Positions 5,460 through 53,861 of a DNA stretch of 64,000 bases are shown piece after piece (positions within the stretch are counted from its first letter, which is position 1; each line of letters starts with the position of its first letter). The notes beneath the pieces are model-generated. The model had not been told where the DNA came from. It searched no databases and was given only the letters and a program-made list of their open reading frames with translations. The translations under genes and the position numbers were made by a program. Source of the stretch: Deltaproteobacteria bacterium (lineage in GTDB: Bacteria; Myxococcota_A; UBA9160; SMWR01); NCBI GenBank assembly GCA_031405455.1, contig JANNIY010000067.1, positions 14,443-78,442 on the forward strand, read 5' to 3'.

Positions 5460-6797
5460 TTGAGCGTCGGCGCGATCGACGACGCCGCGGCTGCGGCCGC
5501 CTGGCTCGAAGGTCTGATCGACGTCGAGAAAAATCCGGATCTGCCGTACGCCCGGCTCGGCCTCGAGCCGATCCGCCGGCTGCTCGCACGCCTCGGCGAT
5601 CCGCAGCGCGGATTGCGCGTGATCCACATCGCCGGCTCGAAGGGCAAGGGCTCGACGGCGCTGTTCTGCGAAGCCCTGCTGCGTGCGGCAGGCGAACGCG
5701 TCGGAACCTTCACCTCCCCCCATCTGGAGCGCTGGAGCGAGCGCTTCCGCATCGACGGCGCGGAGGTCGCAGGCCCGGATCTCGCTGCGGCCGTGCGGCG
5801 GCTGCGCCCCGAAGTCGAAGCGCTGCGCGCGCAGGATCCCGCCGGCGCGCCGACCTTTTTCGACGCCACGACGGCGGCCGCGCTGTGTCTGTTCCGGGAG
5901 GCGCAGGTGGATTGCGCCGTGATCGAGGTCGGCCTCGGCGGGCGCCTCGATTCGACCAACGTGGTCGAGCCCGTCGTCACCTGCATCACGACGATCGAGC
6001 TCGAGCACACGGATCGGCTCGGGAACACGCTCGCGCTGATCGCGGGTGAGAAGGCGGGCATCCTCAAGCGGGGCGTGCCCGCTGTCGGCGGCGCACTGCC
6101 CGAGCCTGCGCGGCGCGTCGTCGTCGAACGCGCGCGGGAGCTCGCAGTACCGCTCGCCTGGTTGGCTGAGGATTTCGATTACGAGATCCTCGCGACCGAC
6201 GCGAGCGGGCTCGCGCTCTCGCTGCGCGACGGGCCGTTCGCCATCGGGGCGCGGATTCCCGTGCTCGGGGCGCATCAGGCGGCGAATGCGGCGCTCGCGC
6301 TCGCCTGTGTCCGGCGCGCGGGAGTCTCCGACGCCGTGCTCGCGGAGGCGGCGCCGCGCGGGTTCGCGGCCGTTCAGTTGCCGGGGCGCGCGGAAGTGCT
6401 CTCGCGTGATCCCTGGATTCTCGTCGATGGTGCACACACGCCCGCCTCGGCCCGCGCGCTCGCGCGCGTGATCGAGAGCCTGCCGCGCCGGCGCACGCAC
6501 CTCGTGCTTTCGATCTCGGCGGATAAAGACCTGCGCGCGATCCTCGTTGCGTTGCTCCCGCTCGCGAACGAAGTGACGGTGACGCGCGCGGAGGCGACGC
6601 GCTCGCTGGATCCAGCGCGGATTGCCACGGCCATCGGGCAGGCGGCGCCGAATCTTGCGATGCGCGTGGTTCCGAATCCGCATCTCGCGCTGCGCGCGGC
6701 GGCCGAGAATCTGGCGCCGGAAGATCTGCTGTGCGCGACGGGCTCGATCTACCTCGCCGGCATCGCGCGCGGCATGTTCGCGGCCAGATCGACCTGA
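5460..6797 (+). CDS. folC: Folylpolyglutamate synthase/dihydrofolate synthase
   Basis: HIAGSKGKGST, FTSPHL, EVGLGGRLDSTN, DGAHT, TGSIY motifs. Confidence 0.95.
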   Translation: MSVGAIDDAAAAAAWLEGLIDVEKNPDLPYARLGLEPIRRLLARLGDPQRGLRVIHIAGSKGKGSTALFCEALLRAAGERVGTFTSPHLERWSERFRIDGAEVAGPDLAAAVRRLRPEVEALRAQDPAGAPTFFDATTAAALCLFREAQVDCAVIEVGLGGRLDSTNVVEPVVTCITTIELEHTDRLGNTLALIAGEKAGILKRGVPAVGGALPEPARRVVVERARELAVPLAWLAEDFDYEILATDASGLALSLRDGPFAIGARIPVLGAHQAANAALALACVRRAGVSDAVLAEAAPRGFAAVQLPGRAEVLSRDPWILVDGAHTPASARALARVIESLPRRRTHLVLSISADKDLRAILVALLPLANEVTVTRAEATRSLDPARIATAIGQAAPNLAMRVVPNPHLALRAAAENLAPEDLLCATGSIYLAGIARGMFAARST

Positions 6798-6804
6798 CGT
6801 TCGG

Positions 6805-8769
6805 CTAGTGAGCGCTGGCGTCGGCCAACGCCCGGAAGATCGTTGCGACGCTGAAGCCGGGATGCGGCGGCGGCGGCGCGGGCGGGCGGTTCGCCACGAG
6901 CGCCCGCGCGGCGCGCCGCAGGCTCGCGATCGAACGCGCGAGGCGGCGTTGCGTGATCTCGAAGCCGTCCGGCTCGCTGCGCAGCAGCCACAGGCGTCGG
7001 AGTTCGCGCCCGAGCGCCGTCTGCTCGCCGGCGAGCGCCCGCAGCTCGCTCGCCAGTTTTCGGCGGGCGGCGGCGGCGAGCCGCGCCGGCCGGCGCCGCC
7101 AGGCGAGATAGCGCTGCCCGGCGAGCGCCTTGCGCACGGCGTGGTGCGAGGCGTCGAGGGCGTAGCGCATCTCCTCCCAGCTCAGCGTTTCGCGCCGGAA
7201 GCGCGGGCCGGCCTGGCGCAGCCGCGTGCGTTCGCGATCCAGGCGTCGCAGCGTGCGCCGCAGATTCGCGGTCTTCGCGCCGTCGATGAAGAAGGCGCTG
7301 TCGAGCGCATCGAAAAAGACGAACTGGAGCGGGGAACCGTTGAACGACGCGAAACCCGCGTCGTGGATGCCGCCGAGCGCCCGTACGCGTCGCGTCGTCT
7401 CGCCGCTCGCGTCGTCGAAGAGTTGCCGCGCGAAGGCGCGGTCGAACACCTTCAGGGAGACGTCCCCCGACCAGGCCTGCTGGGCGGCCCAGGCGTAGGC
7501 GAAGAACGAATTGCCGAGCAGGTTGTAGTGCCCGAAATCGCCCCAATCGGTGACGAGCAGGCCCTCGGCGCCGTGCCGGCGACCCGCGCGTGCGTAACGT
7601 GCGATGTTCGTCGCGCTGTTGTCGAGGCGCGGATAGAGGCTGTTCCACGTCGAGGTTCCCGGGCAGACCCAGAAGCGGATGCCGTGGTCGGCAAAGCGCT
7701 CCACGCGATCGTAATCGTGGTCTGCCTCGTACCACCAATCGAGCAGCACGAGATCGCGCGGAATCTCGGCGATGCGCTCCGGGTGCGCGTGGACGACGTC
7801 GCCCCAGATCATCGCCTGCTTGCCGTGCTGCTGGGCGAGGCGTTGCACGCGCGCGACGTGCTCGAGATAGACGCCGCCCGGCCCGAGCGTTTGCGCGCGC
7901 TCGCGCGATTTTCCGTGCTCGAGATCGAAGGGCTCGTCGCAGTTCGCGTTGAACCAACGCGAACGAAAGTTCGGGAGGAACTCGTCATAGAGATCGGCGA
8001 GCAGCGCGTAGCTGCCAGGCTCGGCCGGCGAGAGCGTCCAGCGCCGCGCGGTTTCGGCGAGCGGCGCATGCCGCGGGAGCGAGAGGATGCGCTCCATGTG
8101 GCCGAGCGATTGCAGCGACGGGATCAGATCGACGAAGCAGGCGGCGGCGTGGACGTCGAGCTCGCGCAGCGCGGCGGCGGTGAGTGGAGAGGCGCCCGCG
8201 CCGATTTCGGGATGGCGGCGAAACGCGAAGGTGTGCTCGACGTAGAGCATCAAGACGTTGAGCTTGAGGCGCGCGCAGAGATCGACGAGCGCGTGCAGCG
8301 TCGCGAGGCTCGGCACCTTGCCGCGAGAAACGTCGAGCATGATTCCGCGCCGTGCGAAATCCGGGGCGTCCTCGATGGAGCAGGCCGGAATCCGGCCGCG
8401 CCGATCGACGAGCTGCGCGAGCGTCTCCACCGCATAGCGCAGCCCCGCAGGGCCTGAAGCCGTGAGCCGCACCCGCTGCGGGCTCACGTCGATGCGGTGG
8501 GCCTCGCCCGCATCGGCCTCGCGATGAAACTCGATGCGGGGGCCGAGGTCCGCGCTCCGCGCGTGCGTTTCGATCGCGAGCCGCACACCCGCGCGATTCT
8601 CGATCGTGCTGCGCAGCACGATCGCCGCGGCGAAATCCGAATCGCGAGCGTCGGCTGAGAGCACGATCGGCGATCGCTCGTGCAAGCGCAGCGATCCGGC
8701 GCGGCGCAGCGCGCTGCGCGGCGCGGGTAGAAGCGGGGGAAGCTCGGCCTTGCGGTCGTCACGCGGCAT
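6805..8769 (-). CDS. Glycoside hydrolase family 20 (beta-N-acetylhexosaminidase-like)
   Basis: IEDAPDFARRGIMLDVSRG, SLGH, catalytic CDE pair, TDWGD; start taken at MPRDD. Confidence 0.85.
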   Translation of the reverse strand: MPRDDRKAELPPLLPAPRSALRRAGSLRLHERSPIVLSADARDSDFAAAIVLRSTIENRAGVRLAIETHARSADLGPRIEFHREADAGEAHRIDVSPQRVRLTASGPAGLRYAVETLAQLVDRRGRIPACSIEDAPDFARRGIMLDVSRGKVPSLATLHALVDLCARLKLNVLMLYVEHTFAFRRHPEIGAGASPLTAAALRELDVHAAACFVDLIPSLQSLGHMERILSLPRHAPLAETARRWTLSPAEPGSYALLADLYDEFLPNFRSRWFNANCDEPFDLEHGKSRERAQTLGPGGVYLEHVARVQRLAQQHGKQAMIWGDVVHAHPERIAEIPRDLVLLDWWYEADHDYDRVERFADHGIRFWVCPGTSTWNSLYPRLDNSATNIARYARAGRRHGAEGLLVTDWGDFGHYNLLGNSFFAYAWAAQQAWSGDVSLKVFDRAFARQLFDDASGETTRRVRALGGIHDAGFASFNGSPLQFVFFDALDSAFFIDGAKTANLRRTLRRLDRERTRLRQAGPRFRRETLSWEEMRYALDASHHAVRKALAGQRYLAWRRRPARLAAAARRKLASELRALAGEQTALGRELRRLWLLRSEPDGFEITQRRLARSIASLRRAARALVANRPPAPPPPHPGFSVATIFRALADASAH

Positions 8770-8806
8770 GTTGCGGCAGGCTAGCGAGAACGCGCGGGGC
8801 TCGCGC

Positions 8807-8898
8807 AAAAAGAGACGCCCGGGCCGGCTACATCGCACAGGGTGCGATGGGAGGGGGTGCCGGCCCGGGCGTTGCGGATGTCCTGTTTTCAGTTGCAC
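8807..8898 (-). ncRNA. Candidate sigma54-dependent small RNA (~90 nt)
   Basis: Downstream of a consensus sigma54 site. 14-bp outer stem (8815-8828/8859-8872), 8-bp inner stem, unpaired ACCCCCUCC bulge, then CUCUUUUU; no credible ORF. Confidence 0.65.
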
Positions 8899-8908
8899 CC
8901 GGTATAAG

Positions 8909-8924
8909 AGCAAGCGGTGTGCCA
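8909..8924 (-). promoter_or_regulatory. sigma54 (-24/-12) promoter
   Basis: TGGCACACCGCTTGCT on the minus strand matches TGGCAC-N5-TTGCW; intergenic. Confidence 0.85.
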
Positions 8925-9052
8925 TCCCCGCGGCGTTCGCCGTCCGCCGCCCAATCCAGCCAGCGTGCGGCGAACGGGATCACACTCCTTCTCGATGCGG
9001 CAACCAGCCGGCAGGCAAGCGGAGACGAGTGACGCAAAATGTGTCGCGTGGA

Positions 9053-9955
9053 TCAATCGTTTCCCTCGCCGCGTACGCGCCGTGCAATTTCGCGGATGTG
9101 ATCGGGTGTGGTGCCGCAGCAGCCGCCGACGAGGCGCGCGCCCGCGGCGACCCACAGCTCGGCGCAGGCAGCGAAGGCCTGCGGCGACAGCTCTTCACTG
9201 TGCTGGAAGCCCGTCACCGCGTCGGGGGCGCCCAGGTTCGCGTAGGCGCCGAAGGGCAGCCCCGCGCGAGCGAGATCGCCGAGACAGACAGCGACGTTCG
9301 CGGGCGGCAGGCAGTTGACCAGCAGCGCGGCCGGCCGCAGTGCGCTCACGGCAGCCACTGCTTCTGCGAGCGATTCGCCCGAGAGCAGCGTGGCGCCGCG
9401 CCAGCACACGAAGCTCACGAGCACGGGCAGCCCCGTCGCGCTCGCGGCGCGTACGGCCGCGCGCGCCTCGCGCAGGCTGTTCAGCGTCTCGCACAGAATC
9501 GCATCGACCCCCGCCGCAGCGAGATTCTCGCAATGTTCTGCGTGCTCGCGCGCGAGATCGGCGTCGTCCGGAACGAGATCGGGGCGGTAGCAATCTTCGA
9601 GCGGAGGATCCGAACCGAGAACCCAGGGGCGGCTTCGCGCGCCCCGTGCGGCCTCGCGCGCCAGCTCGACGGCAAGGGCCGTGAGCGACGCCGCCCGCTC
9701 GCCGAGCCCGTGGCGGGCGAGCGTGCGGCGCTGCGTGCGGAAGCTGTTCGCGGTGAGCGCCTCCGCGCCCGCCTCGACGTAATCCCGATGGATGTCGCGG
9801 ATCAGCTCCGGGGAGCGCAGGAGCGCGCCCGCTGACCAGAGAGGCAGCGTCGTGGGAGCGCCACGCCGCTCGAGCTCCGTGCCCGTGGCCCCATCGAGCA
9901 CCAGGGGCGCAGCGCGCTTCAGCCGTTCGCCGAGATTTGCGAGGACCGGCGGCAT
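9053..9955 (-). CDS. Homocysteine S-methyltransferase family protein
   Basis: LDGATGTEL, VNC and GGCCGTTP zinc ligands. Confidence 0.9.
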   Translation of the reverse strand: MPPVLANLGERLKRAAPLVLDGATGTELERRGAPTTLPLWSAGALLRSPELIRDIHRDYVEAGAEALTANSFRTQRRTLARHGLGERAASLTALAVELAREAARGARSRPWVLGSDPPLEDCYRPDLVPDDADLAREHAEHCENLAAAGVDAILCETLNSLREARAAVRAASATGLPVLVSFVCWRGATLLSGESLAEAVAAVSALRPAALLVNCLPPANVAVCLGDLARAGLPFGAYANLGAPDAVTGFQHSEELSPQAFAACAELWVAAGARLVGGCCGTTPDHIREIARRVRGEGND

Positions 9956-9978
9956 GTCCTGGTTATACTCCTGCGCTC

Positions 9979-12597
9979 ATGCCGCCCACCCGATCCGTTG
10001 CGAGCCACACCATTGCGGGTCGCGTGGAGCTGACGCGCCTCGCCGTGCGGGCGGGCGCGGACACGGTAGCCCCGCTGCGCGAGGAGAGCGCGCCGCTGCG
10101 CGCAGGTGCCCAACGGCTGGCGGGCGTCGAGCTGCGAGTCGAGATCGAGACCGGCACGGACGGCGCGTCGTTCGACCTGGTGGTGTGCAATCCCGGCCCG
10201 CGCCCCGTGTTCCTGGGCACGGTCGTGCTGGGTTTTCGTTGGAAGCGGGCGAGCAGCGGTTCGCTGCGTTTCCTGCGGCATGGCTGGCAGTCGTGGTCCG
10301 CGACCGGCGCGCGCGCTTTCGACGACGCCGGCGAGCCCGCGTTTCCCTCCGGGCCGTGGTTGCGCGGCATGCACCATGCGCTGGGCGCGCCGGCGTCCGA
10401 TCGCGCGGGCTGGCACGAGTCGCACCTCGCGCTGGTCGTCGGCGCGTCACCGGTTGGACCCGCGTGTCTGGTCGGCGTGCTCGAGCGCGGCCGCGCCTTC
10501 GGTGTGTTGTATGCGCGTCGTGACGGGGAGGACGTGTTGATCGAGGCCGAGCTCGCCGTCGACGCGAAGCTCGAGCCGGGCGAGGCGCGTCCGCTCGAGC
10601 GCGTTCAGGTTGCGCTCGGTCTCGACGCGAGCGCGCTGCTCGAAGCCTTCGGCGATGCGCACGGGCGGCTCGCGGAAGCGCGCACCGCGCGACCCTTCCT
10701 GGCGGGTTGGTGCAGCTGGTACCACTTCTTCCATGACGTGAGTGAGGCCGATGTGCTGCGCAATCTCGCAGCGCTCGCCGCGGCCCGCGACGAGCTGCGC
10801 ATCGACGTCGTCCAGATCGACGACGGCTACCAACGCGCCATTGGGGACTGGCTCGAGACGAACGCGAAGTTCCCGCGCGGGCTCGCCCCCCTCGCCGCGG
10901 AGATCCGTGCGGCGGGCTTTACGGCAGGTCTCTGGACGGCGCCCTTCTGCGTCGTTTCGGAGAGTCGCTTGTTCGCCGAACACGGCGATTGGCTCCTGCG
11001 CAGCGGCGACGGCCTGCTGCGCGGCCTGTTGCACCCGGCCTGGAGCCGCGACGCGTCCGTGTACGTGCTCGATCCGAGCCGTGTGCAGGTGCGCGAGCAT
11101 CTCGTGTCCGTCTTTCGTTCGCTGCGGGCGCTGGGCTTCGATTACCTGAAACTCGATTTCCTCTACACCGCCGCGATGCAGGCCGACGCCTTCGATGCGG
11201 GTCTCGGGCGCGCGCAGCGCTTGCGCGCCGGGCTCGAGGCCGTGCGCGAGGGCGCGGGCGAGGGGGCCTTCCTGCTCGGTTGCGGCTGTCCGCTCGGTGC
11301 GGCGGTGGGCGTCGTCGACGGCATGCGCATAGGGCCCGACGTCGCTCCGAACTGGCACGCAGAGCCGGGTGTGCGCATTCCCGGGATCGAAGAGACGCTG
11401 CCGTCGACACGCTCGGCCGTGCGCAGCGTGCTCGCGCGCGCCTGGATGCACCGACGCCTCTGGCTGAACGATCCGGATTGTCTGATGGCGCGTCAGCGAG
11501 ATACGAAGCTCTCGCGCGAGGAGGCGCGCAGCCTCGCCATCGCGATCGCGGCGACGGGAGGCATGCTGTTGTTCTCGGACGATTGGGAGTCGCTCGATGC
11601 CGCGGGGCGCGCGCTCGTCCGCGACACGCTCGCCGCGGCCCGCGCCGTCGACGGCATGGGGCTTCCGAGCCTCGTGCGCGCGCCGTCGCTGCTCGCGGGC
11701 GAGTTCGCGAGCACGCTCGTGGCCGTGGATGCCGGGGGAGGAACGCTCGCATTCTTCAATCCCACGGATGCGGCGGCGGAGGCGGTGATCGATCTGCGCG
11801 CATTCGGGCTCGAGCCCGCCACGGCGGCGCCCGAACCGCTGCTTGGTTCAGGCGCGGCGTGGCGGGTTGGCGCGGCGAATCTGTGCGTGTCGCTCGCGCC
11901 GCACGAGAGCGCGCTGTTTCGCGTCCGGCGCAATTTCCCGCTCGCCGTGTTCTGCGATTTCGACGGCACGTTCTCGGTACAGGACGTCGGAGCCACGCTC
12001 GCAAAGATCCACGCAGGCGATCGCCGTCCGGCGGTGTGGGCCCGCTACGAGCGCGGCGAGATCACGGCCTGGGAGTACAATCTCGAAATTCTCGACGGTT
12101 TGCCGCTGTCCGAGGTCGCGCTCGAGGCCTTCCTGCGGACGATCGAACTCGATCCGGGGGCGACTTCGCTGGTCGCCTGGTGCCGCGAGCGAACGGTGCC
12201 ATTCCGCGTGCTCTCGGATGGCTTCGATTACAATCTCAATCGGCTCCAGGCGCTGCACGGAGTCCGCTTCGCCTTCGAAGCGAATCGTCTGCGCTACGAA
12301 GACGGCTGCTGGCGCATCGCGGGCGCCTTTCCAAATCCGCTCTGCGGCTGTGGAACGGGGACTTGCAAGCGTGGACGCATCGAAGCCTTCCGCAGCGATC
12401 ACCCGGGAACCACCACCGTGCACATCGGCAATGGCCGCGTCTCGGATCTGTGTGGCGCGCTCGCCGCGGATCACGCGTTCGCGAAGGATTCGCTCGCGAA
12501 GGAACTCGGCGAACGGGGCGTTCCGTTTCAGCGTTTCGATACGCTCCTCGACGTGATCCCCCGGCTCGAGAGTCTGCTCGCCGAGGTCGGCGGCTGA
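9979..12597 (+). CDS. Alpha-galactosidase (GH36-like) fused to a C-terminal MtnX-like HAD phosphatase
   Basis: GWCSWY, QIDDGYQ, YLKLDF, MRIGPD, NDPDC motifs followed in frame by CDFDGT, LSDG, CKRG, IGNGRVSD. Confidence 0.85.
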   Translation: MPPTRSVASHTIAGRVELTRLAVRAGADTVAPLREESAPLRAGAQRLAGVELRVEIETGTDGASFDLVVCNPGPRPVFLGTVVLGFRWKRASSGSLRFLRHGWQSWSATGARAFDDAGEPAFPSGPWLRGMHHALGAPASDRAGWHESHLALVVGASPVGPACLVGVLERGRAFGVLYARRDGEDVLIEAELAVDAKLEPGEARPLERVQVALGLDASALLEAFGDAHGRLAEARTARPFLAGWCSWYHFFHDVSEADVLRNLAALAAARDELRIDVVQIDDGYQRAIGDWLETNAKFPRGLAPLAAEIRAAGFTAGLWTAPFCVVSESRLFAEHGDWLLRSGDGLLRGLLHPAWSRDASVYVLDPSRVQVREHLVSVFRSLRALGFDYLKLDFLYTAAMQADAFDAGLGRAQRLRAGLEAVREGAGEGAFLLGCGCPLGAAVGVVDGMRIGPDVAPNWHAEPGVRIPGIEETLPSTRSAVRSVLARAWMHRRLWLNDPDCLMARQRDTKLSREEARSLAIAIAATGGMLLFSDDWESLDAAGRALVRDTLAAARAVDGMGLPSLVRAPSLLAGEFASTLVAVDAGGGTLAFFNPTDAAAEAVIDLRAFGLEPATAAPEPLLGSGAAWRVGAANLCVSLAPHESALFRVRRNFPLAVFCDFDGTFSVQDVGATLAKIHAGDRRPAVWARYERGEITAWEYNLEILDGLPLSEVALEAFLRTIELDPGATSLVAWCRERTVPFRVLSDGFDYNLNRLQALHGVRFAFEANRLRYEDGCWRIAGAFPNPLCGCGTGTCKRGRIEAFRSDHPGTTTVHIGNGRVSDLCGALAADHAFAKDSLAKELGERGVPFQRFDTLLDVIPRLESLLAEVGG

Positions 12598-51664: not shown

Positions 51665-51680
51665 TGGCACTTTCGTTGCA
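51665..51680 (+). promoter_or_regulatory. sigma54 promoter of PEP-CTERM gene 1
   Basis: TGGCACTTTCGTTGCA. Confidence 0.9.
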
Positions 51681-51768: not shown

Positions 51769-52644
51769 ATGCGGAGACTATGGGTCCTGCTTGCGGCCGC
51801 GATGTTGGCCCTTGGGGTCGGCGTCTCGGCCAGCGCGAGGCCGCTCAATTTCGAGGGCACGTTCTCAACGGCCATCGGAACCGAGCTCCCCGTGCTCGAC
51901 AACACGCTCGGCGGTGTTGCGACCGTCAACAACTCGGCTGGGGCGATTCCGTCCCACTTGAACACGCTGCGGATTGCAGGTAGCCGGGGCGGCGGCGCCA
52001 CTTCGGCGATGATCGCCATCACGGATCCGGCGGTGGCGGCGAATGGGATCGCGTCGATCCGCATCAACTCGGAACTCGGCACGGGCACGTTCGCGCCGAT
52101 CTCCGGTGGTGCGGCCTCGACGACCGTGCTGACGAAGCGGCAGCTTCCGGTCCGCGGCCTGTCGAAGGTCTGCCTGCTGTCGACACAGTGCACGAACTTT
52201 CTGCCGCTCCAGCTGACGCAGCACATCGCGACGAGCGCGGTGAAGGGTGTTGGCATCGGCGGTCTGATCACGATCGGCGGCGGCACCAACCCGATCCGGA
52301 TTTCGATCGAAGCGGCGCCGTGGACGATCAAGGTGGGGACGAAGATCGACCAGATCACGACCCCGATGACGATCGGTGGCGTCAAGAAGTTCGTCAACAT
52401 CACGGGGATGGGCTTCGCTCACGACCCCAGCTCGGCCACGACCAACACGGCGCAGCCGTCGGGCGTGGTGCAGCTGATCTCGCCCATGCAGATCGTCACG
52501 AACCTGACCTCCGGCAGCAACGCGAAGCTGTCGCTGTTCAGCACGCTCCGGGTTCACTTCATCCCGGAGCCCGGTTTGCTGGTCCTGCTCGGCTCGGGTG
52601 TTGCCGGCCTCGTCCTGCTGGGCCGCCACCGCATGCGCAAGTAG
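51769..52644 (+). CDS. PEP-CTERM sorting-domain surface protein 1
   Basis: Sec signal peptide (ASA), Ser/Thr/Gly-rich body, IPEP + TM helix + RHRMRK. Confidence 0.93.
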   Translation: MRRLWVLLAAAMLALGVGVSASARPLNFEGTFSTAIGTELPVLDNTLGGVATVNNSAGAIPSHLNTLRIAGSRGGGATSAMIAITDPAVAANGIASIRINSELGTGTFAPISGGAASTTVLTKRQLPVRGLSKVCLLSTQCTNFLPLQLTQHIATSAVKGVGIGGLITIGGGTNPIRISIEAAPWTIKVGTKIDQITTPMTIGGVKKFVNITGMGFAHDPSSATTNTAQPSGVVQLISPMQIVTNLTSGSNAKLSLFSTLRVHFIPEPGLLVLLGSGVAGLVLLGRHRMRK

Positions 52645-52877: not shown

Positions 52878-52893
52878 TGGCACCAGAGTTGCA
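52878..52893 (+). promoter_or_regulatory. sigma54 promoter of PEP-CTERM gene 2
   Basis: TGGCACCAGAGTTGCA. Confidence 0.9.
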
Positions 52894-52988: not shown

Positions 52989-53861
52989 ATGCGAAAATTA
53001 TTCATGTTAGGCGCCGCGGCGCTGCTCGCGTTCGGCGTTGTGAATACGGCGAGCGCCAACCCGCTCAACTGGGAAGGCTCGATGCTTCTCGAGCTCGGCG
53101 ACCTGCCGGCGCTCGGTAACACCGGTGGCGGCGTGGCGACGGTCAACAACTCGGCCGGCTCGATTCCCGCCCATCTCCAGACGCTTCAGCTGAAGGCCAG
53201 CCGCGGCGCGATCGCCGGAACCGCGATGGTTCCGATCACCGACCCGACCGTGTCGGCCAACGGCATCTCGTCGATTCGCGTACAGGCGACGATGCAGACG
53301 GGCACGTTCGCGCCGATCTCCGGCGGTGCGGCCTCGACGACCGTGCTGACGAAGCGGTTCCTGCCGGTCAACGGCCTCGCGAAGGTCTGCCTGCTCTCGA
53401 CGCAGTGCACGAACTTCCTGCCCCTCCAGCTGACGCAGCACATCGCGACGAGCGGCGCGAAGGGCCTCGGCCTCGGTGGCCTGCTCACGATCGGCGGCGG
53501 CACCAACCCGATCCGGATTTCGATCGAAGCGGCGCCGTGGACGATCAAGAACGGCGTTGTGATCGACCAGATCACGACCCCGATGACGATCGGTGGCGTC
53601 AAGAAGTTCATCAACCGCACGGCCATGGGCTTCGCTCATGACCCCAGCTCGGCCACGACCAACACGGCGCAGCCGTCCGGTGTGGTGCAGCTGATCTCGC
53701 CCATGCAGGTGGTGACGAACCTCACCTCCGGCAGCAACGCGAAGCTCGCGCTGTTCGGTTACCTCACGGTTCACTTCATTCCGGAACCGGGCATGCTGTT
53801 GCTGCTCGGCTCGGGTGTTGCCGGCCTGATCCTGCTCGGCCGACACCGCATGAAGAAGTAG
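52989..53861 (+). CDS. PEP-CTERM sorting-domain surface protein 2 (paralog of gene 1)
   Basis: SD AGGAG, signal peptide, IPEP + TM helix + RHRMKK; long blocks identical to gene 1. Confidence 0.93.
   Translation: MRKLFMLGAAALLAFGVVNTASANPLNWEGSMLLELGDLPALGNTGGGVATVNNSAGSIPAHLQTLQLKASRGAIAGTAMVPITDPTVSANGISSIRVQATMQTGTFAPISGGAASTTVLTKRFLPVNGLAKVCLLSTQCTNFLPLQLTQHIATSGAKGLGLGGLLTIGGGTNPIRISIEAAPWTIKNGVVIDQITTPMTIGGVKKFINRTAMGFAHDPSSATTNTAQPSGVVQLISPMQVVTNLTSGSNAKLALFGYLTVHFIPEPGMLLLLGSGVAGLILLGRHRMKK

Follow-up and report, generated by a model that had tools for sequence, protein, structure and literature searches.

A stretch of 64,000 nucleotides from a Deltaproteobacteria bacterium (GTDB lineage Bacteria; Myxococcota_A; UBA9160; SMWR01; GenBank assembly GCA_031405455.1, contig JANNIY010000067.1, positions 14,443 to 78,442), called the window below, carries on its minus strand a short unit made up of a sigma54-type promoter, a compound hairpin with an unpaired C-rich bulge, and a U-rich tail. 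This unit is very probably a gene in its own right, driven by sigma54 and a bacterial enhancer-binding protein (bEBP) and closed by its own terminator; its product would be a regulatory small RNA (sRNA) of about 90 nt that most likely acts by pairing of the bulge with Shine-Dalgarno-like sites in mRNAs. The promoter and hairpin are conserved together and in single copy almost throughout one uncultured class of Myxococcota, with compensatory base changes and an excess of G.U cells that points to the promoter's strand, and whether or not the GH20 glycoside hydrolase gene that follows them in the window is present.

The promoter, TGGCACaccgcTTGCT (8909..8924, minus strand), matches the sigma54 -24/-12 consensus TGGCAC-N5-TTGCW without mismatch, as a preliminary description of the locus had noted. 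Three such sites are found in the window when up to one mismatch is allowed, all of them exact, against a mean of 1.0 after shuffling, and three or more were reached in 8 of 100 shuffles of the window; the whole genome (4.71 Mb, 68% G+C) has 24 sites of the form TGGCA[CT]-N5-TTGC[AT]. With the GC at 8911/8910 taken as -13/-12, transcription is predicted to start near 8898, where the preliminary description had also placed it, and would yield an sRNA of about 92 nt (8807..8898, minus strand) on running to the end of the U-tract. The promoter ends about 10 nt ahead of such a transcript, so that the -24 GG and -12 GC lie at the right distance from it. The predicted RNAs of relatives are of similar size, with a median of 89 nt and a range of 69-148.

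RNAfold gives the segment 8898-8807 a free energy of -46.4 kcal/mol, compared with -27.9 +/- 3.0 for 200 shuffled sequences, none of which was as stable (z = -6.2). The compound hairpin (8815..8872, minus strand) consists of a perfect 14-bp outer stem (8872-8859 with 8828-8815) and an apical stem-loop (8849-8831) whose 8-bp stem (8849-8842 with 8838-8831) is closed by a 3-nt loop, CCU, and followed by a 2-nt UA bulge. Between the two stems, in the minimum free energy and centroid structures alike, the 9-nt ACCCCCUCC at 8858-8850 is unpaired; this C-rich bulge (8850..8858, minus strand), which holds the anti-Shine-Dalgarno core CCUCC, is the proposed seed. The fold agrees with that of the preliminary description, down to the U-rich end ahead of GH20. 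A weak 3-bp hairpin also appears near the 5' end of the minimum free energy structure; conservation is confined to the compound hairpin, the 5' leader (26 nt in the window) being poorly conserved and almost devoid of information across the class.

The GC-rich hairpin runs into a U-rich tail, CUCUUUUU (8807..8814, minus strand), and with the U-tract UCUCUUUUU has the form of a Rho-independent terminator, at which transcription would stop. Over 93 loci the 14 nt after the stem contain on average 5.8 T where composition predicts 2.0, about a threefold excess. A simple terminator and promoter scan of 8000-10000 did not report the hairpin, an uninformative result because its loop rule excludes compound hairpins.

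We take the locus to be more than a chance assembly chiefly because of its conservation and covariation in relatives. The preliminary description had been unable to assign a family, and had proposed looking for one in Rfam, searching relatives by BLAST and testing for covariation. Rfam 15 gave no match at gathering thresholds over the whole window, and at E <=10 only five weak matches (9-15 bits) over 8650-9100, none overlapping the hairpin at 8815-8872. BLAST with 9060-8750 against 40 relatives matched 25 of the 41 genomes, its own included; outside the genus the match was confined to the hairpin (8871-8811), with identities of 75-88% and, as a rule, a single match in each genome. When 185,579 species, each represented by one genome, were scanned with an exact pattern, 84 loci came up, and of the 80 whose record titles were listed 78 are uncultured metagenome-assembled genomes labelled Myxococcota or 'Deltaproteobacteria', or bearing other automatic labels. 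Matches in Arthrobacter and in a 'Planctomycetota' metagenome-assembled genome have neither the structure nor the promoter and were set aside as chance.

From 82 distinct hairpins of the pattern search (alignment A1) we built a covariance model, R1. Within the window's class it finds the hairpin in 135 of the 151 genomes sampled, and in 98 of the 104 that are at least 90% complete; in a sample drawn evenly over the phylum it matched 26 of 27 other genomes of the class and none of 123 genomes of other classes. The window's hairpin scores 73.6 bits on the minus strand and 33 on the opposite strand. Copy number is nearly always one per genome, and both BLAST and R1 find a single copy in the window's own genome. 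One apparent absence, in genome G239, is due to a contig end that falls within the hairpin. The rare duplicates include a head-to-tail pair (G267:C4:2638267-2638408), an inverted pair with a palindrome of the kind described below for each copy (G287:C406:1259-1614), and an RNA whose 5' part contains an additional, partial ACCCCUCC hairpin (L115:1421-1571).

The promoter accompanies the hairpin. A site of the form NGGCA[CT]-N5-TTGCN lies no more than 330 nt upstream in 100 of 101 loci, and the stricter TGGCA[CT]-N5-TTGC[ATC] is present 18-87 nt ahead of the hairpin in 91 of 98. The unit would define an sRNA family not filed before, present once in nearly every genome of one uncultured class of Myxococcota. 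Word searches of the literature, which match words and not sequence, gave no description of this RNA, and the public sequencing runs that hold the stretch are six DNA runs (four possibly from the source sample), with no RNA run listed.

The hairpin varies as a structure under selection should. In A1, 96% of cells are paired and 11 of the 23 pairs have changed in a compensatory way; the covariation score, 0.301, compares with 0.151 after shuffling, no shuffle of 500 was as high, and partners slid out of register gave at most 0.081. Because the fixed collection pattern of A1 freezes some of its columns, we aligned anew, by MAFFT alone, 27 sequences from the evenly drawn sample that had not been selected by pattern (A3). 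Again 96% of cells are paired; compensatory changes are seen in 18 of 23 pairs, and none of 500 shuffles reached any of the five measures. A3 lessens the pattern bias of A1, yet its sequences were collected with R1. Examples in the outer stem are the passage of CCCGGG/CCCGGG to CCCGAG/CTCGGG or CCGGAC/GTCCGG, and of the pair at the stem top from C-G to A-U to G-C; the apical stem varies from CAUCGCAC to CCUCGCAC to GCCGCAC. Cells with G.U number 132 and A.C mismatches only 12; the selected strand is therefore that of the sigma54 promoter. The CCCUCC of the bulge is invariant in all 27 sequences of A3, which cover two orders.

Upstream control region

A candidate upstream activating sequence, the palindrome GACACATTTTGCGTC (9031..9045, minus strand), has its centre some 115 bp ahead of the -24 element and starts 8 nt past the stop codon of the preceding methyltransferase gene. 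Its class consensus is GTGAC(A/G)CAAATTG(T/C)GTCAC. The strict palindrome is present in 65 of 100 promoter-bearing loci, where its centre lies 75-141 nt (in most cases 104-127) ahead of -24, and most of the remaining loci have degenerate copies of CGCAAATTG type. In the window's own genome the strict form occurs only at the sRNA locus; four other matches, one of them non-palindromic and three looser (contigs C113, C122 and C192), lack a sigma54-like site in their vicinity. Across 43 genomes of the class sample we found 47 distinct exact palindromes, 37 of them beside an R1 match and one more at the G239 locus with its truncated hairpin; the same pattern written backwards, as a control, found no site. 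One perfect palindrome (G016:C6:1040-1054, L146) stands at a gene end on a contig other than that of the sRNA, with no sigma54 site nearby.

Between palindrome and promoter lie direct TGCC(G) repeats in roughly 11-bp phase (TTGCCTGCCGG-N6-TTGCCG; 8998..9017, minus strand). Under a strict expression, two TGC[CG] words 9-17 nt apart follow the palindrome in 22 of 65 loci, and more are seen by eye; one locus (L100) has four TGCC(G) repeats in a row. A further regulator could bind here, for instance a response regulator of the winged-helix type. A sequence resembling an IHF site (WATCAA-N4-TTR or CAR-N4-TTAS) meets a strict rule in 16 of 92 loci.

An upstream palindrome within the range of about 80-150 bp, rpoN, and some 21 bEBP genes, located on other contigs or far from the sRNA, are all found in the genome. 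The layout is that of a textbook sigma54 promoter with a dedicated activator, from which we infer binding and activation: a bEBP would bind the palindrome and enable sigma54 RNA polymerase to transcribe the sRNA, and in some lineages DNA bending at the IHF-like site probably assists. That the palindrome is nearly unique in the genome suggests a dedicated-activator logic such as that of Qrr and GlmY/GlmZ.

The bulge and its possible partners

Only one single-stranded element, R-CCCCUCCC in the bulge, is conserved throughout the class. The organism's own 16S rRNA ends in ...GGAUCACCUCCUUUCU, the anti-Shine-Dalgarno core of which, CCUCC, is contained in the bulge. Searches for hfq and csrA genes in the 98.6%-complete genome found none. 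Unpaired anti-Shine-Dalgarno motifs (CCUCCUCCC) are described, in a study of the rhizobial RNAs NfeR1/alpha-r14, as Hfq-independent seeds (PMC10746234). By analogy, the bulge most likely pairs with G-rich ribosome-binding sites without Hfq: exposed between covarying stems, R-CCCCUCCC would pair in trans with GGGAGGGG in target mRNAs and so block ribosome binding.

The sequence GGGAGGGG occurs at 150 sites in the genome, 28 of them 3-14 nt before the start of an open reading frame, and 15 of these precede plausible true starts. By Pfam, the 15 candidate targets include dnaK, rpoC, fumC (fumarase), a Kdo transferase, methyltransferases, a PEP mutase-like protein, a CHRD/PEP-CTERM protein and others; since no theme emerged, this seed-only prediction was rejected as a basis for naming targets. 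In one sub-lineage (L032, L045, L051, L085, L112 and L116) the 5' region is longer and contains a conserved G-rich hairpin (…GGGGCG…GAGGAGCGGGCCCCC…), which could possibly pair with the C-rich bulge in cis to form a self-masking variant.

A number of observations weigh against the reading of the locus as a bEBP-dependent, mRNA-pairing sRNA gene. The transcript, its ends and its dependence on sigma54 are predictions. The 15 candidate targets have no functional theme and may simply be genes with strong ribosome-binding sites, and the start regions of the neighbouring methyltransferase, GH20 and folC genes contain no G-rich match. The activator gene is not close by: at none of 100 loci does a bEBP AAA+ domain occur within 1.5 kb of the sRNA. 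A good many U-tracts, though not most, are weak, a run of at least three T being present in only 59 of 93 tails. The pattern from which A1 and R1 were seeded inflates the apparent conservation of fixed positions. Finally, the outer stem, GCCCGGG...CCCGGGC, is more conserved than pairing requires, variants of it appearing in only a minority of the covariance model hits, and this could point to a protein partner.

The last of these points keeps alive the main rival, in which the same transcript would serve as a protein-binding or sponge RNA, the bulge and its closing stems binding a protein or titrating G-rich RNA. An invariant bulge over two orders, and the failure of the seed-only search to yield a coherent set of targets, would fit such a role as well. 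However, no gene for a CsrA-like or Hfq-like partner was found, each RNA carries a single module whereas known sponges usually have many repeated sites, and an 8-nt unpaired motif resembling an anti-Shine-Dalgarno sequence is a well-precedented mRNA seed (PMC10746234). We therefore hold a protein-binding or sponge role to be unlikely, and prefer pairing with ribosome-binding sites.

A bolder form of the pairing reading is that the sRNA is the near-sole target of a dedicated bEBP and, as a mimic of the 16S anti-Shine-Dalgarno sequence, masks the strongest G-rich ribosome-binding sites genome-wide, as a class-wide switch of translation selectivity. This seems to us a long shot. If true, induction would shift translation towards mRNAs with weak Shine-Dalgarno sequences and leaderless mRNAs, such as that of GH20, with a possible tie to one-carbon or methionine status, given the placement of the gene between methyltransferase and folC.

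The locus lends itself to experiment: a single palindrome and a single sRNA face some 21 candidate activators, which brings within reach the question of the signal that the activator senses, and the invariant 8-nt bulge can guide target searches. The RNA family comes with a complete and unusually clean set of candidate sigma54 elements (palindrome, phased repeats, IHF-like site and -24/-12 promoter), it is the first candidate riboregulator of this metagenome-only class of Myxococcota, and R1 is ready for use in annotation.

Neighbouring genes and independence from GH20

Upstream of the sRNA and on the same strand is a gene for a homocysteine S-methyltransferase of 300 aa (9053..9955, minus strand; PF02574, 9.1e-69; NCBIfam, 1.2e-52). 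Downstream, 38 nt past the sRNA tail and again on the same strand, is the gene for a GH20 glycoside hydrolase (6805..8769, minus strand; Pfam GH20b and GH20), and convergent with it is folC, for folylpolyglutamate/dihydrofolate synthase (5460..6797, plus strand; TIGR01499, 1.5e-104). The likely GH20 start is ATG 8769: the GH20b domain begins some 10 codons past it and relatives align from there, with an LPPLLP N-terminal motif. The longest GH20 open reading frame (6805-8925, 706 aa) begins at ATG 8925, inside the sigma54 site, and runs in frame through promoter, sRNA and terminator; we rejected it as an artefact of a stop-poor, GC-rich sequence. It is a likely mis-annotation, and gene callers that prefer long frames would hide the sRNA gene within it.

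We counted neighbours by tblastn at 100 distinct related loci. A methyltransferase homologue precedes the hairpin on its strand in 62; GH20 follows it, likewise on its strand, in only 35, and 65 have none within 1.5 kb. In 21 loci, plus one with a short fragment, the end of a convergent folC homologue is no more than about 250 nt from the hairpin start, so that nothing is left downstream to regulate in cis. The ancestral order is likely that of the window: methyltransferase, sRNA, (GH20) and opposing folC. A gene caller based on GC3, tried for orientation, called 38 downstream genes on the same strand and 40 convergent, left 22 uncalled, and proved too noisy to use. The sRNA sits between two genes of one-carbon metabolism, in an order widely kept in the class, which may be a hint at function or merely inherited gene order.

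The GH20 gene has a -10-like hexamer of its own, TAGCCT (8778..8783, minus strand), 8 nt ahead of its ATG. Among 36 GH20-linked loci, 31 have TAnnnT 6-10 nt before the start codon (TAGACT, TAAGAT, TACACT, TATAGT and others), an arrangement that, by our estimate, a few per cent of loci would show by chance in DNA of 68% G+C. These motifs argue for a GH20 promoter separate from that of the sRNA and for a leaderless or near-leaderless mRNA, which would account for the lack of a Shine-Dalgarno sequence; the GH20 start regions suggest that leaderless mRNAs are in use in this lineage.

An arrangement of this kind bears on the possibility, named in the preliminary description among those that would undo its proposal, that the sRNA is only a leader or attenuator acting in cis on GH20: the sigma54 promoter would serve that gene, and the hairpin with its U-tract would be a conditional terminator. 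The position and strand of GH20 in the window and at the 35 loci would suit such a leader, as would the outcome of the simple scan of 8000-10000, which reported no sigma70-type promoter. Set against this, the unit of promoter and hairpin persists (100 of 101 loci) while the downstream gene changes, GH20 being absent from the vicinity at most loci and folC abutting at 21. Between the start of the hairpin core and the GH20 ATG there are anything from 78 to 260 nt, with no conserved sequence among them, and the nearly information-free 5' leader leaves no conserved antiterminator fold. A GH20 leader is accordingly quite improbable. With GH20 optional and equipped with its own -10-like element, and with a promoter and a terminator apart from any neighbour's mRNA, the locus is a standalone sRNA gene, as the preliminary description had held; some read-through into GH20 alongside the sRNA is possible.

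Hardly credible is the remaining alternative, a mere (bidirectional) intrinsic terminator of the methyltransferase gene, elsewhere of folC, beside an unrelated sigma54-like site: the hairpin is indeed the first strong one past the methyltransferase stop codon, is nearly palindromic, as its opposite-strand score reflects, and in 21 loci is abutted by a convergent gene, but an 8-nt bulge that stays invariant across a whole class is not a feature of terminators, promoter and enhancer palindrome accompany the hairpin at fixed distances, and the excess of G.U over A.C reveals selection on one strand only.

Elsewhere in the window, the other two exact sigma54 sites (51665-51680 and 52878-52893, plus strand) each precede a gene for a secreted-looking protein (51769-52644 and about 52990-53861, plus strand). 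The first of the pair closes with ...IPEPGLLVLLGSGVAGLVLLGRHRMRK, apparently a PEP-CTERM sorting signal, and TTTCCAC-type repeats lie about 100 nt upstream of both promoters; the two look like a sigma54-controlled pair of PEP-CTERM paralogues. Divergent from the methyltransferase gene is an open reading frame of 886 aa (9937-12597, plus strand) with a melibiase (alpha-galactosidase-like) domain and a C-terminal HAD hydrolase domain.

Comparison with known systems

Control by dedicated enhancer-binding response regulators that have few other targets is familiar from the sRNAs Qrr (LuxO/sigma54) and GlmY/GlmZ (GlrR/sigma54). These are gammaproteobacterial, with other structures and seeds and with Hfq or RapZ as partners, and their Rfam models gave no match here. 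In Campylobacter jejuni one flagellar sRNA is itself reportedly RpoN-dependent. The abstract of a study of that organism, which belongs to a different phylum, ties sRNAs to its RpoN-dependent flagellar hierarchy (PMC11187230).

The parallel drawn in the preliminary description was with Pxr of Myxococcus xanthus and its relatives. In two papers (PMC5568312, PMC5684412), Pxr is described as a 108-nt RNA of three stem-loops, SL1-SL3, the end stem-loop being needed for accumulation; it has an apparent sigma54 promoter with an enhancer-binding site, its hosts have no hfq, its gene lies directly downstream of the NtrC-like pxrR/nla19 and before a gene for NADH dehydrogenase, and it is reported only from fruiting myxobacteria. 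The present RNA shares with Pxr, as there described, the phylum, a sigma54-type promoter with an enhancer-like site, the lack of hfq, a length of about 100 nt and an end stem-loop. Unlike Pxr, it has one compound hairpin behind a variable 5' tail, and its neighbours are the methyltransferase and GH20 or folC genes, with no bEBP gene within 1.5 kb at any of the 100 loci. The parallel thus stands as an analogy only, adjacency to the activator and the three stem-loops having no counterpart here, and it is by Pxr's description, not by its sequence, that the two are set apart. The strings CCCUCC, CCCTCC and GGAGGG were absent from the eight supplementary files of PMC11928866, which may not list the Pxr sequence, and the RF01811 (PtaRNA1) model gave only sub-threshold noise.

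For the proposed mechanism the closest match is NfeR1/alpha-r14, together with AbcR1/2, of the alpha-rhizobia. These RNAs combine an ultraconserved, unpaired, C-rich anti-Shine-Dalgarno motif with variable stems and act in trans without Hfq, as is proposed for the family described here, and the motif pairs with about 8 nt of the translation-initiation regions of the targets (PMC10746234). NfeR1 belongs to a different phylum, has three hairpins with the motif in each, and has LsrB as its activator and NtrC as its repressor, whereas the present RNA has one motif, in a bulge instead of a loop, behind a sigma54 promoter, and shows no sequence relation to NfeR1. The family is no new principle; it is one more case of two known themes, sigma54-controlled sRNAs and Hfq-free, C-rich anti-Shine-Dalgarno seeds.

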